Source of the DNA: a virus | Taxonomy: Duplodnaviria; Caudoviricetes | Reading direction: 5' to 3' (one strand) | DNA length: 64,000 nt | Virus record (IMG/VR): IMGVR_UViG_3300027969_004220 | Span: 32,001 to 96,000 of that record | Part shown: positions 6,453-45,380 of the stretch, piece by piece | Numbering within the stretch: the first letter of the stretch is position 1 | Layout of the letters: each line of letters begins with the position of its first letter | Translations under genes and position numbers: made by a program | Notes under the pieces: generated by a model | What the model saw: only the letters and a program-made list of their open reading frames with translations | Told to the model about the DNA's origin: nothing | The model's database searches: none

Positions 6453-6806
6453 TTGCATATCAGTTGTAATCTCAATCTTAAATCCAAATCCAGAATCATC
6501 ATCTGATGTATATCTAACTTCTGAGTCATATCCTCTATCACCGCTAAATGTCATTGGTTTTGGACCAGTCATTTGTTGTTGTCTTCTCATTTGATTATTT
6601 CTTTCTTCTGATTCTTGTTGAGCAATCATTTCTTCAAATGTTAAACCCGGTGGAGTCGGAGGAGTTGGATCATCTTGACGAGTTGTAAATTGTTCTGGTT
6701 GATGTCCATATTTACGAAGTAGTTGTTCTGCTTCCCAACTTGGAATATTTGCTGGTCTAGTTTCCTCTGATTGAGGTTCGATCATTGTTACTTGAGTTCT
6801 TTCCAT
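6438..6806 (-). CDS. Hypothetical protein
   Basis: 122 aa; WATATATA motif upstream at 6830. Confidence 0.65.
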   Translation of the reverse strand: MERTQVTMIEPQSEETRPANIPSWEAEQLLRKYGHQPEQFTTRQDDPTPPTPPGLTFEEMIAQQESEERNNQMRRQQQMTGPKPMTFSGDRGYDSEVRYTSDDDSGFGFKIEITTDMQLPRY

Positions 6807-6934
6807 AACTTTTTATTTATTTTATAAGGTATATATAAAAAATTGTCACTATATTTGTACTCAGAAAGAAAAAAAGTTCAAAAATATGAAAAGGAAGAAA
6901 AACTTTTTAATATATAGAACTATAAAACATATAT

Positions 6935-7005
6935 CGCGTTAAAGTGTAAAGGTTGCATGAGACTCTCATAAGGTCTACGGGGTGGTTCGAATCCACGATA
7001 CGCTA
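6935..7005 (+). tRNA. tRNA-Met(CAT)-like, degenerate acceptor stem
   Basis: Anticodon arm AGACT-CTCATAA-GGTCT, T-arm GTGG-TTCGAAT-CCAC; three acceptor mismatches. Confidence 0.55.
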
Positions 7006-7051
7006 CAAAAGAGATAGATAACGATTTAGATACAAGTCTCAAAGAATATAT

Positions 7052-7124
7052 CGCGGGATAGAGCAGTAGGCAGCTCGTGTGGCTCATAACCATAAGGTCG
7101 GAGGTTCGAGTCCTTCTCCCGCTA
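7052..7124 (+). tRNA. tRNA-fMet(CAT)
   Basis: CGCGGGA...TCCCGCTA with unpaired C1, loop CTCATAA, GGTTCGAGTCC. Confidence 0.9.
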
Positions 7125-7152
7125 CTAAAAGAATAAAAAAAGTTAAAAAAGA

Positions 7153-7183
7153 TTTGGTGAATTAAAAACTTATCGTATCTTTG
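7153..7183 (+). promoter_or_regulatory. Host-type promoter of attenuated tRNA array 1
   Basis: TTTG-N19-TATCTTTG. Confidence 0.8.
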
Positions 7184-7221
7184 TAGAAGAATTAAAAACA
7201 ACAATTTAAAAAATAGAAAAA

Positions 7222-7323
7222 ATGACAACAATTACTAACATAACAATAGCTATCGAAGCCATAGGCGGGTATGAAGCGGGGTATACAATACCATCGGTCA
7301 GAAGCGTTATGTGTATAAAGTAA
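7222..7323 (+). CDS. Attenuator leader peptide 1 (Ile/Ala/Glu/Gly/Tyr sensor)
   Basis: MTTITNITIAIEAIGGYEAGYTIPSVRSVMCIK*; codons 9-21 are all I/A/E/G/Y; five ATA codons. Confidence 0.8.
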   Translation: MTTITNITIAIEAIGGYEAGYTIPSVRSVMCIK

Positions 7324-7350
7324 TGAGTTGAAAAAACATTATTATACAAC

Positions 7351-7388
7351 AAACCCAATCTGACGTAAAAATCAGATTGGGTTTTTTT
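7351..7388 (+). terminator. Attenuator terminator 1
   Basis: AAACCCAATCTGA/TCAGATTGGGTTT stem plus T7; its 5' arm TCTGAC can instead pair with leader GTCAGA (7297-7302). Confidence 0.85.
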
Positions 7389-7402
7389 ATTGAATTATAT
7401 CT

Positions 7403-7488
7403 GGGTAGATATGCAAGTGGTTAAAGCTGGCAGACTGTAAATCTGTTCTCATTCGAGTTCGGGGGTTCGAATCCCTCTCTACCCACCA
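7403..7488 (+). tRNA. tRNA-Tyr(GTA)
   Basis: GCAGA-CTGTAAA-TCTGT, long variable arm, encoded CCA. Confidence 0.95.
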
Positions 7489-7494
7489 AAATAT

Positions 7495-7567
7495 GGTGTA
7501 TTCGTCTAGCGGTAAGGATTACGCTTTTTCAAAGCGGAGGACGTCGGTTCGAATCCGACATACACTA
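7495..7567 (+). tRNA. tRNA-Glu(TTC)
   Basis: ACGCT-TTTTCAA-AGCGG, GGTTCGAATCC. Confidence 0.9.
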
Positions 7568-7581
7568 CAAAAAACATAATC

Positions 7582-7649
7582 GGGATGGATTATGGTGATA
7601 GCCGGGTCTGTAAAACCCTAGCAGGAGAGTTCGAGTCTCTCGCATCCCA
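7582..7649 (+). tRNA. tRNA-Tyr(GTA)-like, atypical (short D region, no long variable arm)
   Basis: GGGT-CTGTAAA-ACCC, GAGAG-TTCGAGT-CTCTC, GGGATG/CATCCC. Confidence 0.6.
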
Positions 7650-7655
7650 CTGCAA

Positions 7656-7727
7656 GCTGCTATCGTCTAACGGTAGGACAACATCTTCTCAAGGTGTGAG
7701 ATACGGGTTCGACCCCCGTTAGCAGTA
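7656..7727 (+). tRNA. tRNA-Glu(CTC)
   Basis: ACATC-TTCTCAA-GGTGT. Confidence 0.9.
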
Positions 7728-7734
7728 CAAAAAT

Positions 7735-7957
7735 TGGGTTAACTTCCGGTGTAGGAACCGGCGTCCTCAGGTAAGGGAGGAAGCTAACAAAGCTAAGGAA
7801 AATGGTGGTAAACAAACCACAAGGTGCGAGACCCCTTTAGCCCACAAAGTAGATATTTGAGTGTAAGCAAGTACAATATCAGTCGTTAGGTTCTTACAGA
7901 CAGTGAACGATGGTCCGAATGTCATTATTCGGTGATGGATACCAGGCAACTCCATCA
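7735..7957 (+). ncRNA. Unidentified structured RNA(s) inside tRNA array 1
   Basis: GC-rich; closing helix TGGGTTAA/TTAGCCCA (7735-7844) encloses several hairpins, followed by a further hairpin series. Confidence 0.5.
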
Positions 7958-7962
7958 TATAT

Positions 7963-8034
7963 GATCCGGTCTTCTAATGGTCAGGAAGCAAGGTTTTCAT
8001 CCTTGTAATCAGGGTTCGATTCCCTGTCGGATTA
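7963..8034 (+). tRNA. tRNA-Glu(TTC)
   Basis: CAAGG-TTTTCAT-CCTTG. Confidence 0.9.
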
Positions 8035-8043
8035 CAAAAAAAC

Positions 8044-8118
8044 TGGTAAGTAGCTTAGACGGTAGAAGCATCTGTCTTATACACAGAAGATAGTCGGGTT
8101 CGATACCCACCTTACCAA
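8044..8118 (+). tRNA. tRNA-Ile(TAT)
   Basis: TCTGT-CTTATAC-ACAGA. Confidence 0.85.
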
Positions 8119-8125
8119 CAAAATC

Positions 8126-8199
8126 GCGGGAGTCGTATAATGGCTCGATTATGCTGGCTTTCCACGTCAGAGACGAGGGTTCGATTCCCTTCTCCCGCA
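8126..8199 (+). tRNA. tRNA-Gly(TCC)
   Basis: GCGGGAG/CTCCCGC, CTGGC-TTTCCAC-GTCAG. Confidence 0.9.
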
Positions 8200-8253
8200 C
8201 CGCAGACTTTTTTGACTTTTTTATTTTAATATATATAATAAAAAAGTCTGAAA

Positions 8254-8880
8254 ATGTCAAAAAATAAAATAAAGTATCACTTTTTGTATAAAACTACAAA
8301 TTTGATAAATAGTAAGTATTATTATGGAATGCATAGTACCTATAAACTAGATGATGGTTATTTAGGATCTGGTAAAATGTTAAGATACTCAATACGTAAA
8401 TATGGTAAAGAAAATTTTAACATCGAAATTATAGAATTTTTTCCTTCAAGAGAAGATTTAGTAAACGCTGAAATGAATTTGATTACAGAAGAAATGGTAG
8501 TTGATAACAAACTATGTATGAACCTTAAAAAAGGTGGTTTAGGTGGATTTACAAAAGAACAATCTCATAAAGGTGCATTAAGGATGTTAGATATAATATG
8601 GAGTGATAGTGATTTTATAACAAGACACAACGAAAGAAAAAGTAAGCTAATCAAAGAACTATATCTAAGTGGTAAAATAAAAAGATGTGACTGGACTGGT
8701 AGAAAACATAGTAAAGATACTATAGAGAAAATGACTTTATCTAAAAAAGGACAAGGATTAGGAGAATCTAATTCACAATTCGGAACTTGCTGGATAACAA
8801 AAGATGGAGAGAATAAAAAAATAACAAAAGAAAAATTAGAAGACTATTTGATGGATGGTTGGATAAATGGAAGAAAATAA
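8254..8880 (+). CDS. GIY-YIG (Seg-like) free-standing homing endonuclease with NUMOD3 motif
   Basis: FLYKTTNLINSKYYYGMH, YLGSG, GRKHSKDTIEKM; inserted between tRNAs. Confidence 0.85.
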   Translation: MSKNKIKYHFLYKTTNLINSKYYYGMHSTYKLDDGYLGSGKMLRYSIRKYGKENFNIEIIEFFPSREDLVNAEMNLITEEMVVDNKLCMNLKKGGLGGFTKEQSHKGALRMLDIIWSDSDFITRHNERKSKLIKELYLSGKIKRCDWTGRKHSKDTIEKMTLSKKGQGLGESNSQFGTCWITKDGENKKITKEKLEDYLMDGWINGRK

Positions 8881-8881
8881 T

Positions 8882-8953
8882 GCGAATGTAGCTCAGTGGT
8901 AGAGCTTCTGCTTGCCAAGTAGAAGGCCGCCGGTTCGACCCCGGTCATTCGCT
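8882..8953 (+). tRNA. tRNA-Gly(GCC)
   Basis: TCTGC-TTGCCAA-GTAGA. Confidence 0.92.
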
Positions 8954-9033
8954 CAGTATAAGTGGTTTAAGTTATAGAAATCTCTATATCTAAGACGTTA
9001 GATGAAAAATTTTTATACACCACTTTAATTATA

Positions 9034-9177
9034 AAGATAGTAGTAATATAAAGCGTTACTTCGTATTCAAACGACTATTATAGGTTCGAATCCTATTGTC
9101 TGCTCAAATAATTAAAAATGCAGATATAGTGTAATGGTAACACAGTAAAAACACGTTTAATAAACTTTCTCTATCTT
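9034..9177 (+). ncRNA. YrlA-like (bacterial Y RNA-type) permuted tRNA mimic
   Basis: Order is outer stem, T-arm (ATAGG-TTCGAAT-CCTAT), acceptor-like stem TGTCTGC/GCAGATA closed by a loop, D-arm (GTGT-AATGGTA-ACAC), then outer stem (AAGATAG/CTATCTT). Confidence 0.6.
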
Positions 9178-9182
9178 ACTTT

Positions 9183-9254
9183 GGGGCTATCGTATAATGG
9201 CTATTACACAGGATTTGCAATTCTGATATGAGATTTCGACTATCTCTAGCTCCA
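9183..9254 (+). tRNA. tRNA-Ala(TGC)
   Basis: GGGGCTA/TAGCTCC with G3:U70, CAGGA-TTTGCAA-TTCTG. Confidence 0.9.
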
Positions 9255-9429
9255 CAAAATAAAAATTAAATATGAAAACTAAAGAACAGTCGCTGGACGC
9301 ACTTTAGTCACAGAAGAATATAAATCTTACTGTGACGGTAATAAAACAGAAAGAATTAAAAGATCATTAGTAAAAAATGGTTCTCGTAATGATAGAAAAT
9401 TACAAAAATATTCTGATAAATTTAACAAA

Positions 9430-19193: not shown

Positions 19194-20786
19194 ATGAGTT
19201 TACAAAGACAAATTACTCGAAAATTAGAAAGAGCCATTGCTGATAAAGATTGGACTTCTTTACAAGGTATTCAAAAATACCTAACAAAAATTATTACAAA
19301 ACCAGACAATTTAATTCTTTGCTCTGATGCTTACAAATACTCACACCATAAATTCTATGGTGATGAAATGACCAAAATGGTTTCTTATATGGAATCTCGA
19401 GGTGGTAAATTCTCAGAAACTTTGTTCTATGGTTTACAAATCATTATCAAACAATACTTAGAAGGTATCGCTATTACCAAAGAAGAAGTTGATGAAGCAG
19501 ATGATTACTTAGCATCTAAACTAGGAGTATTCGGTAGAGACGATGTATTCGACCGTTCTAAATTTGATTACATTGTTGATAAATATGATGGTAAATTACC
19601 TATCAGTATTAAAGCAGTTCCAGAGGGAACTGTTGTAAATACAAAGAATGTACTTTTCATCATTGAAAGTTTAGACGAGAAATGTGCTTGGATAACAAAC
19701 TTCTTAGAAAGTATCTTACTTCAAGTTTGGTATCCAATTACTGTTGCCACTCTTTCAAGAGAAGTTAGAAAAATTGTAACCAATTCATTTTTAGATTCTA
19801 CTTCTTATGATGATAAAACAATCAATTTCTTAGTTGATTTTGTTTTAAATGACTTTGGTTTCAGAGGTGTATCTTCTGTACAATCAGCGAAAATTGGTGG
19901 GTCTGCACATCTTGTCAACTTCTTAGGTTCTGACACTGTAATCGCTTCTAAATTGATTAGAGACGTATATAATACTGAACGAATCTACGGATTATCAATT
20001 CCTGCAACCGAACACTCTATTATGACACTTAAAGGCGAAGAAGGAGAGTTAGAACTAATGATGCGAGTTTTAAAAACATTCCCAACTGGATTAGTTGCTT
20101 GTGTATCAGATTCATACAATATCTTTAGAGCTTGTTCTGAATATTGGGGAACTGAGTTAAGAGATTTAGTTCTTTCAAGACCAACAACACCTGGTAATCA
20201 ATTAGTTATTAGACCTGACTCTGGTCACGTTTTAAGAACTTTAAAAGAAATCTTTGATATTCTATTTGATAAGTTTGGTTATACTGTAAATGAAAAAGGT
20301 TATAAAGTTCTTCCACCACAAATTAGAGTAATTCAAGGTGATGGTGTGAATTTAGAATCAATTGGTGAAATCTATATGATGTTAAAATCAGAAGGTATCT
20401 CTCCAGAGAACTTAGCATTGGGTATGGGTGGTAAATTATTACAAGCTGATATAAATCGTGATACAAATAACTTCGCAACCAAAGCATGTTTCGCAATTGT
20501 TGATGGTCAAGAAAGAAATGTAGTTAAATCTCCTACAGAAATGGATGCAGATGGTAACATTACAAAATCTTTCAAAAAATCTAAACAAGGTCGTTTGAAA
20601 CTTGTTAAAAATGATGATGGTACTTACAGAACTGTTACATCAATGGATGCAGACTTTGATACTGTTAAAGATGAGTTAGTTGAAGTATTTAGAATGGGTA
20701 ACATCACAAAAGAGTGGAACTTTGATGAAATTAGACAAAGAGCTGCTGTTTTAGTAGAACAAGAATTAGAAGAATTGATAGCATAA
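19194..20786 (+). CDS. nadV: Nicotinamide phosphoribosyltransferase (NAMPT)
   Basis: SDAYKYSH, DFGFRGVSS, SIPATEHS, VSDSY, VIRPDSG, VIQGDG, KKSKQGRL. Confidence 0.95.
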   Translation: MSLQRQITRKLERAIADKDWTSLQGIQKYLTKIITKPDNLILCSDAYKYSHHKFYGDEMTKMVSYMESRGGKFSETLFYGLQIIIKQYLEGIAITKEEVDEADDYLASKLGVFGRDDVFDRSKFDYIVDKYDGKLPISIKAVPEGTVVNTKNVLFIIESLDEKCAWITNFLESILLQVWYPITVATLSREVRKIVTNSFLDSTSYDDKTINFLVDFVLNDFGFRGVSSVQSAKIGGSAHLVNFLGSDTVIASKLIRDVYNTERIYGLSIPATEHSIMTLKGEEGELELMMRVLKTFPTGLVACVSDSYNIFRACSEYWGTELRDLVLSRPTTPGNQLVIRPDSGHVLRTLKEIFDILFDKFGYTVNEKGYKVLPPQIRVIQGDGVNLESIGEIYMMLKSEGISPENLALGMGGKLLQADINRDTNNFATKACFAIVDGQERNVVKSPTEMDADGNITKSFKKSKQGRLKLVKNDDGTYRTVTSMDADFDTVKDELVEVFRMGNITKEWNFDEIRQRAAVLVEQELEELIA

Positions 20787-23993: not shown

Positions 23994-24647
23994 ATGGAAT
24001 TATTCATGTTTGATATAGAAACGGCCGGACAATATAAAGACTTTACAGAATTTGAAAAAAATGATGAACGTGGTTCAAACCTTTTTAAAGGCAAATACCA
24101 AAAAATGGGTTGGGAAGAAAAATACGGAAACATATACGAAGCTTATTTAGATAATGCAGGTATTGTACCAACTTATGGTAGAATAGTTTGTATCTCATTT
24201 GGTTACTTAGATAACGGTCAAGAAAGAATCTCAAGTTTCTACGGAGACGATGAAAAAGAAATTGTAGAGAAATTTAATAACCTACTTAAAAAGATTGAGA
24301 AGAAAGATTTTAATTTATCTGGATTTAGAATAGCTTATTTTGATATTCCTTGGGTAGCTCATAAGTTAGCTAAGTATGGTATTAAACCAGCTGATATAAT
24401 TACCACTTATAATAAGAAACCTTGGGAAATGAGAATCACTGATATGTCTGATGATTGGAAGTCAAAATTTGCTTGGGCATTCTCATTTGATGAGATGTGT
24501 TATGAGTTGGGAATTGAATCTCCAAAGGATAATATGAATGGTGGAGACGTACATGATGCTTACTGGGAAGGTAGAGTTGAAGAGGTAAAAATCTACTGTG
24601 AGAAAGACGTAAAAGCCTCAATTAAAGTATCTCAGGTTATTTATTAA
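23994..24647 (+). CDS. PolB-related DEDD 3'-5' exonuclease
   Basis: FDIET, GRIVCIS, FDIP, YCEKDV. Confidence 0.85.
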   Translation: MELFMFDIETAGQYKDFTEFEKNDERGSNLFKGKYQKMGWEEKYGNIYEAYLDNAGIVPTYGRIVCISFGYLDNGQERISSFYGDDEKEIVEKFNNLLKKIEKKDFNLSGFRIAYFDIPWVAHKLAKYGIKPADIITTYNKKPWEMRITDMSDDWKSKFAWAFSFDEMCYELGIESPKDNMNGGDVHDAYWEGRVEEVKIYCEKDVKASIKVSQVIY

Positions 24648-43274: not shown

Positions 43275-45380
43275 ATGGAGATAAACAAACAATTACTTAC
43301 GAAAACACTTGACATTAAAGCTTCCTTAGAAGATGATGATGACGATGACTACAACAAATTCGGAGGTGGTAATGGTAAAAAATCTGACACTAAATCTAAA
43401 ACTCCGGTATTAGATACATACAGTCGTGATTTAACTAAATACGCCGAAGAAGGTAAGTTAGATCCAATTGTTGGAAGAGATAAAGAAATTGAAAGAGTTT
43501 CGCAAATTCTTTCCAGAAGAAAGAAAAATAATCCTATGTTACTTGGTGAAGCTGGAGTTGGTAAGTCTTCTATTGCAGAAGGATTAGCACTTAGAATCGC
43601 ACAACGTAAAGTTAGTAGAATCTTATTTGACAAAAGAGTTGTTATGTTAGATCTAGCTTCTATGGTTGCTGGTACTAAATACAGAGGACAATTTGAAGAA
43701 AGAATCAAAGCACTTATGGCAGAGGTTGAAGATGATAAATCTATTATCCTTTTTATTGATGAGATTCATACAATGATTGGTGCCGGTGGATCAAGTGGTT
43801 CTATGGACGCTTCTAATATGTTTAAACCTGCTTTAGCTAGAGGTGAAATACAAATCATTGGTGCAACAACCCTTGATGAATATAGAAAACACGTTGAAAA
43901 AGATGCTGCATTAGAAAGACGTTTCCAAAAAGTAGTTGTTGAACCTGCTACTCCAGAAGAAACTATACAAATCTTAACAAACATAAAAGATAAGTATGAG
44001 TCTCACCACAACGTAACTTACACTGATGAGGCAATTAAAGCTTGTGTTGATCTAACTGTTAGATATATGTCTGACCGACACTTACCAGATAAAGCTATTG
44101 ATGCGTTAGATGAAGCCGGTGCAAGAGTACACATTTCTAACATAGTAGTTCCTAAAGAAATTACTGATGTAGAACAAAAGATCATCGAAATCAAAGAAAA
44201 GAAAAATGATGTAATTAAACGTCAGAAGTACGAAGAAGCAGCTAAATTGAGAGATGTTGAAAAACAATTAAACACTCAATTACAAGTAGCTAAAGAAAGA
44301 TGGGAAGAAGACACGTTGAAAAACAGACAATTAGTAAGTGAAGATAATGTAGCTGAAGTTGTTGCTATGATTACTGGTATTCCAGTTCAAAAAGTAAATC
44401 AAAGTGAAAACAAAAAACTTTCTAAAATGTATGAAAACATTGCTGGTAAAGTTGTTGGGCAAGATGATGCTGTTAAGAAAATCATCAAATCTATCCAGAG
44501 AGGTAGAGTTGGTATGAAAGATCCTAACAAACCAATCTTTAGTGGTATCTTAATTGGTAACTCTGGTGTTGGTAAAACAGAACTTGCAAAACAATTATCT
44601 AAGTATTTATTTGAATCAGAAGATTCTTTAATCAGATTAGATATGTCTGAATATATGGACAAAATCTCTTTAACAAGAATTCAAGGAGCAGCCCCTGGAT
44701 ATGTTGGATATGATGATGCGAATGTTTTAGACAAGATTAGAAGAAAACCTTATTCAGTTATTCTTTTAGATGAGATTGAAAAAGCTCATCCAGATATATT
44801 TAACCTTTTCTTACAAATGTTAGATGAAGGACATATTACAGATTCTCACGGTAGAAAAGTTAGTTTTAAAAACTGTGTAATCTTAATGACTTCAAATGTT
44901 GGTACTAAAGTTGTTAAAGAATTTGGTGCTGGTGTTGGATTCTCTACCAAAACTAAAGAAGATAAAAGAGAAGATGATATAAAAGGTATCTTAGAAAAAG
45001 AGTTGAAGAAAAAATTCGCACCTGAATTTATCAATAGATTAGATGAAATCATTTACTTTAGAGATTTGGGTAAAGAAGAGATAATGAAAATTGTTGACTT
45101 AGAATTAAGAAAAACTTTAGCAAGAGGTTTAGAAATTGGATTTACTTTAGAAGTATCTGATTTATTAAAAGAACATTTAGTTGAGATTGGTTACGACCCT
45201 CAATTTGGTGCTCGACCTTTGAAAAGAGCAATTCAACGAAGTATTGATGATGCAGTAACTGAATTCATTATTGAAAGTGAACCAAAAGAAGGTACTACTT
45301 TAGTACTTGACTATGATGCTGAAAAAGAAGAGACAACAGTCAACTTGAAAAAGAGAAAGAAAACAAAAAAAGAAGAGTAA
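43275..45380 (+). CDS. clpC: ClpC-like AAA+ unfoldase lacking the N-terminal Clp-repeat domain
   Basis: GEAGVGKS and GNSGVGKT Walker A motifs, [14 protein letters not shown]-like middle helix (YEEAAKLRD), VGF loop, GARPLKR. Confidence 0.9.

Follow-up and report, generated by a model that had tools for sequence, protein, structure and literature searches.

The window analyzed here, a 64,000-nucleotide stretch of DNA, comprises bases 32001-96000 of a 105,621-bp virus record (IMGVR_UViG_3300027969_004220; Duplodnaviria, Caudoviricetes), referred to below as the 105.6-kb phage genome and having a G+C content of 29.4%. Here we report a locus in which a short leader open reading frame (ORF) and an intrinsic terminator precede an array of tRNA genes, and in which the codons of the leader correspond to the amino acids that the array serves. 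The features of this locus lie on the + strand, and positions are those of the window unless genome positions are named. The leader ORF runs from ATG to TAA over 33 codons (7222-7323; stop codon 7321-7323) and is followed by the terminator with its T-run (7351-7388), 27 nt separating the ORF stop from the terminator stem and 14 nt the T-run from tRNA-Tyr. The array itself (7403-9255) has the order Tyr, Glu, (Tyr), Glu, gap, Glu, Ile(tat), Gly(tcc), GIY-YIG-like ORF, Gly(gcc), gap, Ala(tgc). A Tyr-Glu-Ile(UAU)-Gly-Ala array had been described behind the leader in an earlier reading of the DNA (the sequence-only reading), and ARAGORN recovered it as Tyr(gta), Glu(ttc), Glu(ctc), Glu(ttc), Ile(tat), Gly(tcc), Gly(gcc) and Ala(tgc), with a weak second Tyr(gta) at 7579-7653 under relaxed settings only.

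Upstream of the leader lies a promoter-like site of the form TTTG-N19-TAnnTTTG (7153-7183), kept in three relatives from IMG/VR. This pattern is enriched in the window, with nine matches, the present site among them, as against 2.05 +/- 1.39 in shuffled sequence, and none of 100 shuffles reached nine. We take it to be the -33/-7 promoter form of Bacteroidota. Between the terminator and tRNA-Tyr there is neither a promoter motif nor space for one, so that any transcription of the array has to pass through the terminator.

Codons 9-21 of the leader (7246-7284) form the putative regulatory block, 13 consecutive codons that read exactly as quoted in the sequence-only reading and that specify only Ile, Ala, Glu, Gly and Tyr. 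These five amino acids account for 0.299 of the residues in 106 long ORFs, at which frequency a fixed stretch of 13 codons has P = 1.5e-7. Across the six frames of the genome, 430 ORFs of 20-60 amino acids start with ATG, and no other among them has such a run of 13, the runner-up being 6; in 30,291 windows of 32 residues from long ORFs the longest such run is at most 7, none reaching 8. A chance origin of the run is excluded. Over the whole leader, 17 of 32 codons fall within the amino-acid set of the array, where 9.6 would be expected.

The five ATA codons that had been claimed for the leader are present, at codons 7, 9, 14, 23 and 32. The proposed match of block to array holds for 12 of the 13 block codons, which the anticodons of the array can read; it does not extend to the ATC at codon 11, which Ile(UAU) does not read, although ATA occupies this position in nine of the 14 distinct sequences aligned below, where all 13 codons are readable. 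The block also differs from the genome in its third positions, six of 13 being G or C compared with a genome value of 0.17, and its GGC, GGG, GCC and GCG codons are rare ones (3-7% usage).

The terminator consists of a 13-pair stem (5' arm 7351-7363, 3' arm 7372-7384) with five G-C pairs and a loop of 8, has a predicted energy of -18.1 kcal/mol, and carries seven T's (7382-7388). The 181-nt leader as a whole folds more stably than expected (z -3.47, matched or beaten by 1 of 200 shuffles), and for 7285-7350 folded alone -8.3 kcal/mol is an ordinary value (z -0.55), one that 53 of 200 shuffles matched. In the predicted alternative fold, an antiterminator 5' strand within codons 26-29 (7297-7308), made up of GTCAGA and GTT, pairs with terminator bases 7359-7364 and 7352-7354, which thus belong to both structures. 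Bases 7288-7302, which include GTCAGA, are invariant in 15 sequences.

The antiterminator coordinates given by the sequence-only reading are exact (GTCAGA 7297-7302 with TCTGAC 7359-7364, and TGTATAA 7312-7318 with TTATACA 7342-7348), and the gap between the last Tyr codon (7282-7284) and the start of GTCAGA is 12 nt, as it stated. The two helices fare differently in the alignment of 14 distinct sequences: the outer GTCAGA/TCTGAC helix is paired in 98.8% of cells, and the inner TGTATAA/TTATACA helix in only 75.9%. The conserved inner elements are instead the GTT(7306-7308)/AAC(7352-7354) pairing and a hairpin of six pairs, 7320-7325 with 7337-7342, that encloses the stop codon; the latter (7320-7342) is paired in 100% of cells, and its loop varies in both sequence and length. 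Further upstream, a possible "1:2" hairpin of 11 pairs (7272-7300) would have as its triloop the hypervariable codon 22, which takes six forms among the aligned sequences. All 11 of its pairs are invariant, and its 3' strand overlaps the TCA of GTCAGA.

The sequence-only reading had proposed folding the leader with ribosome-masked segments. For our folding, the nascent transcript was taken to extend to the terminator loop, and all bases to 12 nt beyond the A-site codon were masked. The 5' arm of the terminator is predicted to be sequestered until the A site passes Tyr21 and then released: its pairing with upstream RNA stays at p = 0.69 while the A site is at any of codons 1-21, drops to 0.31 at codon 22 and does not exceed 0.1 from codon 25 onward. 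When the upstream RNA was shuffled with its dinucleotides preserved, arm pairing averaged 0.31 +/- 0.16, and 0.69 was reached by 1 of 200 shuffles. The same step by ribosome position recurs in 14 of 14 distinct homologues, with the antiterminator strand placed one footprint past the block.

This arrangement is not confined to one locus. The genome holds six leader cassettes, whose ATG start codons are at genome positions 22382, 24177, 39222 (the 7222 leader), 57627, 58803 and 67529, each consisting of an ORF of 25-36 codons, a terminator of -12.8 to -19.1 kcal/mol and then a tRNA array. Each of the six leaders is enriched for the amino acids of its own array, the true pairing ranking first among the 720 permutations of the leader-by-array matrix; some array members were assigned with relaxed settings or on visual inspection, so that the isotype sets of the other five arrays are less certain than the one described above. 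In the other five leaders, too, the step is predicted where the cognate block ends. The common T/N/I-rich opening and upstream boxes of the leaders indicate that they are paralogues, and past the first residues the six share no common peptide.

The sole array in the genome without a cassette is a pair of Met(cat) tRNA genes at 6933-7125, which has a promoter-like site directly 5' and neither a leader ORF nor a terminator. With the relaxed and by-eye assignments included, all 20 amino acids are represented among the six arrays and this pair. The position of this pair just upstream of the leader raised the possibility that the hairpin is simply the end of the Met-tRNA unit; this was rejected, as the promoter-like site intervenes and elsewhere in the genome the same cassette follows protein genes.

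A separate sequence box, TTTAATATATA, stands 4-6 nt 5' of the ATG in five of the six leaders and also precedes many ordinary genes on both strands. It has 20 exact copies in the genome, with window sites at 6906, 8225, 25611, 26787, 33493 and 35513; the leader at 7222-7323 has only a diverged form of it. This box could be a phage-specific promoter for near-leaderless mRNAs or a translation-initiation element.

Relatives of the locus were sought by a promoter-motif scan with blastn and by a pattern back-translated from nine residues of the block. The promoter-motif scan returned 47 stretches, six of which (from five contigs) are relatives and the others chance matches. Three of these contigs, all from IMG/VR, carry the same leader at 79-89% identity; the remaining two, both fragments, have no match to the leader region. 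The block pattern returned 17 metagenome stretches, 16 of them genuine; the remaining one (L070) is an unrelated ORF and was excluded. A further pattern, independent of the codon block, found the same three IMG/VR contigs and no others, and a blastn search with 6800-9300 for similar DNA in named phages matched 371 records, none with at least 80% coverage, the matches being tRNA pieces and the GIY-YIG-like ORF. The resulting alignment (A2) sets the window beside 14 of the 19 loci that carry the leader. Its 14 distinct rows are those of 13 distinct relatives and the window, and five exact duplicates (L067, L071, L072, L073 and L074) are omitted.

The ORF, its frame and the terminator are kept in all 13 distinct relatives. 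In A2 there is no variation, or almost none, in the ATG, the reading frame, the terminator stem and bases 7288-7302, and all 11 scored terminator pairs are kept in every aligned sequence. A 6-nt in-frame deletion in the ORF is present in 3 of the 14 distinct rows. Variable codons inside the block differ only synonymously (five of five), and those outside it only non-synonymously (eight of eight). The three IMG/VR relatives show the same five synonymous differences in the block, along with non-synonymous ones at codons 22 and 31. Within 7285-7390, which lies outside the search pattern, 4 of 53 paired columns vary as against 32 of 56 unpaired columns (Fisher p = 1.7e-8). Tyr, Glu, Ile(tat), Gly and Ala follow in the same order at all eight loci of relatives that extend 3 kb or more downstream; odd low-confidence tRNA calls in relatives are Thr (L060, L073), Ser (L064) and a distant Leu (L066).

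Conservation of the ORF and its frame would also be seen if the product of the ORF were a small peptide with its own function, such as a regulator or a membrane peptide, with the terminator simply closing its gene. We regard this as very improbable. The peptide is poorly conserved: the variable codons outside the block are all non-synonymous, and 3 of the 14 distinct sequences lack the last two codons. The paralogues diverge in peptide as noted above, and a terminator with such a role would keep the tRNA array, for which there is no separate promoter, from being expressed.

We suggest that the block of tRNA genes is probably the target of ribosome-mediated transcription attenuation by a leader peptide; this reading draws on the sequence, its statistics, conservation and paralogues, and on modeled folds. 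We infer that the ORF is translated, that transcription ends at the hairpin, that stalling throws the switch, and that the signal is the supply of tRNA and not that of amino acids. In the proposed sequence of events, host RNA polymerase would start at the promoter-like site and transcribe the 33-codon leader, with a ribosome trailing it. If the Tyr, Glu, Ile (ATA), Gly and Ala codons were decoded fast, the ribosome would reach codons 22-33 and the stop codon, covering or disrupting GTCAGA/GTT and the inner hairpin; the 13-pair terminator could then form and transcription would stop about 14 nt before tRNA-Tyr. Slow decoding of any of these codons would stall the ribosome within codons 9-21 and leave the RNA from 7297 onward unoccupied. 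GTCAGA and GTT could then pair with TCTGAC and AAC before the 3' arm of the terminator is made, and the polymerase would continue into the array. Since the product of the operon would be the limiting tRNA, the loop would be self-limiting, supply climbing until the leader is again read fast.

Several observations weigh against this attenuator or reduce the force of the evidence for it. Eleven of the 13 distinct relatives were retrieved with a pattern in which the amino acids of codons 13-21 are preset, so that at codons 13, 16 and 18 only synonymous variation could appear; the unbiased part of the codon evidence consists of codons 9-12, of which 10 and 11 vary, and of the three IMG/VR relatives. 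The extent of the ribosome mask, to 12 nt past the A-site codon, is our own assumption. The long-range part of the antiterminator has only 6 + 3 pairs, the alternative fold as a whole is predicted at -15.7 compared with -18.1 kcal/mol for the terminator, and the candidate 1:2 hairpin has an unremarkable stability (-7.1 kcal/mol, z -1.26), with 24 of 200 shuffles equaling it. The shuffle controls are weaker in the remaining five leaders, where 11, 16, 52, 82 and 188 of 200 shuffles reached the observed value at a codon that we chose. The rare G/C-ending codons of the block could serve RNA structure instead of, or as much as, decoding speed. None of the pairs in the three structures counted on A2 has changes on both sides; because all stems are invariant there is no compensatory change, and the alignments thus neither prove nor refute the helices. 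Finally, the antiterminator is predicted even for a leader free of ribosomes (0.69), so that there is no clear "superattenuation" state.

The lack of covariation in the stems would also fit a constitutive element, in which hairpin and T-run act as a leaky terminator or insulator, or as an RNA processing or stability element, the ORF having no translation or no relevance and owing its composition to constraint on the RNA or to the shared ancestry of the duplicated cassettes. Such an element would be in keeping with the paralogy of the leaders and with the overlap of hairpin sequence and G/C-rich block codons. Paralogy nevertheless leaves unexplained why each copy has diverged toward the amino acids of its own array, and RNA constraint predicts fixed bases, not free third positions with fixed amino acids. 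A run of 13 lies far beyond the genome background, and in every distinct homologue the antiterminator strand is placed one footprint past the block. Taken with these points, a constitutive element seems quite improbable.

The prediction for the ribosome-free leader bears on another alternative, in which the same switch would respond to translation stress in general or to starvation for amino acids (uncharged tRNA, or ribosomes slowed by whatever cause) and not to the supply of these particular tRNAs, the array serving as an emergency set. With the antiterminator formed in the absence of a ribosome, any loss of translation would open the gate, and there is a cellular precedent in the silent trn array of Anabaena, which is described as induced by translation-targeting antibiotics (PMC10272220, PMC8421152). 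We consider this alternative unlikely. A general sensor would need no array-specific codons, yet the six leaders match their own arrays, and the amino acids of the block are kept through synonymous change. Extra tRNA, moreover, would not ease amino-acid starvation.

As an attenuator, the phage cassette can be compared with the leader peptides of enterobacterial operons, among them the thr leader (Thr and Ile), the ilvGMEDA leader (Ile/Leu/Val), trpL, hisL and leuL. It resembles them in having a short ORF with regulatory codons, in the opposition of a terminator to a ribosome-dependent antiterminator, and in the reading of several amino acids by one leader. It is unlike them in that it would control tRNAs and not biosynthetic enzymes, is viral, mixes five amino acids, and appears to be open by default without a ribosome. 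To our knowledge, all described leader-peptide attenuators control genes for amino-acid biosynthesis or synthetases, whereas the target here would be tRNAs. A cellular parallel is pheST of E. coli, which encodes phenylalanyl-tRNA synthetase and is attenuated through the pheM leader; it shares leader-peptide control of the translation machinery and differs in its synthetase target, its single amino acid and its cellular genome. The pheL leader is likewise counted among the attenuators of amino-acid operons (PMC3082878).

The locus shows no sequence similarity to the enterobacterial leaders, the Rfam family Thr_leader (RF00506) reaching 12.7 bits in 7126-7402 where its threshold is 55 (E = 6.9). 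A permissive Rfam scan of that region gave 11 matches, all sub-threshold with E of at least 0.34; over the whole window, the scan at gathering score gave 33 matches, all of them tRNA. T-box elements gave no match at gathering score in the window and none at E <= 10 in 7126-7402. The cassette would be like a T-box in tying read-through to the state of specific tRNAs through a choice between terminator and antiterminator. It differs in that a T-box binds uncharged tRNA directly and independently of translation, whereas the phage codons lie in an ORF.

The regulated tRNA array closest in behavior is the trn array of Anabaena PCC 7120, reported to be silent and induced under translational stress (PMC8421152, PMC10272220) and to be controlled by a protein repressor, TrcR (PMC10272220). 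The likeness would lie in an accessory tRNA array that stays off until translation is impaired; the differences are the repressor and a cellular rather than viral setting. The strings "attenuat", "leader" and "terminator" do not occur in the main text of PMC8421152. In a literature search at the level of abstracts we found no published account of leader-peptide attenuation of tRNA genes. The proposed mechanism is a known one, leader-peptide attenuation, and would be new in being directed at tRNA genes; with tRNAs as the controlled genes in place of biosynthesis or synthetase genes, the cassette would not be an ordinary member of the leader-peptide attenuators.

Why phages carry tRNA genes is debated, the two positions being codon compensation and escape from tRNA-cleaving defenses (PMC10264068, PMC11555353, PMC12409363), and the regulation of these genes is largely unexplored. 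A tentative extension, which we hold to be possible and still rather doubtful, is that the six attenuators act together as a demand sensor resolved by isotype. Ribosome speed on these "test" ORFs would report which host tRNAs are scarce or have been destroyed, for instance by anticodon-nuclease defenses, and only the matching arrays would be transcribed. The result would be a self-limiting, translation-coupled circuit for counter-defense and codon supply, covering all 20 amino acids except for the leaderless Met pair. Already a single attenuator reading the codons that its own array serves would mean that a virus gauges the tRNA supply directly and makes tRNAs on demand, and classic attenuation would widen from metabolic operons to the translation apparatus. 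Such a cassette would also offer synthetic biology a compact, programmable "codon-speed" sensor.

Sixteen sequencing runs matched, each with a small share of the window, and four of these (X3, X5, X10 and X14) were compared, the RNA libraries in the form of contigs. Read-sized RNA-library contigs lie on the leader at 7176-7326 (X3, no differences), 7147-7291 (X14, no differences) and 7145-7300 (X10, three differences). These contigs include the promoter region and may reflect DNA carry-over, and as contigs they convey no ends, strand or level.

The array contains several unusual segments. The stretch of about 230 nt between Glu(ctc) and Glu(ttc) (7729-7962) drew no tRNA call, and an Rfam scan of 7725-7965 gave nothing at E <= 1. 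By eye, its first 110 nt look tRNA-like, with acceptor-like ends and a T-arm-like stem, and a gap is found at the same place in relatives. Under relaxed settings ARAGORN also reported an odd tRNA-like gene with a two-base "anticodon" at 9033-9105 and, at genome positions 24002-24133, an Asn(gtt) body with an interrupting insert.

The ORF within the array (8254-8880; 208 amino acids) gave a weak, sub-threshold SegE-like GIY-YIG match, the only one obtained when eight neighboring proteins were searched against Pfam. Its DNA resembles the seg homing-endonuclease genes of T4-type phages, which are likewise located in tRNA regions. Among ten proteins searched against PHROGs, none was tied to tRNA; those identified include a nicotinamide phosphoribosyltransferase (19194-20786, E = 1.3e-136) and an ATP-dependent protease-like protein (43275-45380, E = 3.2e-227).
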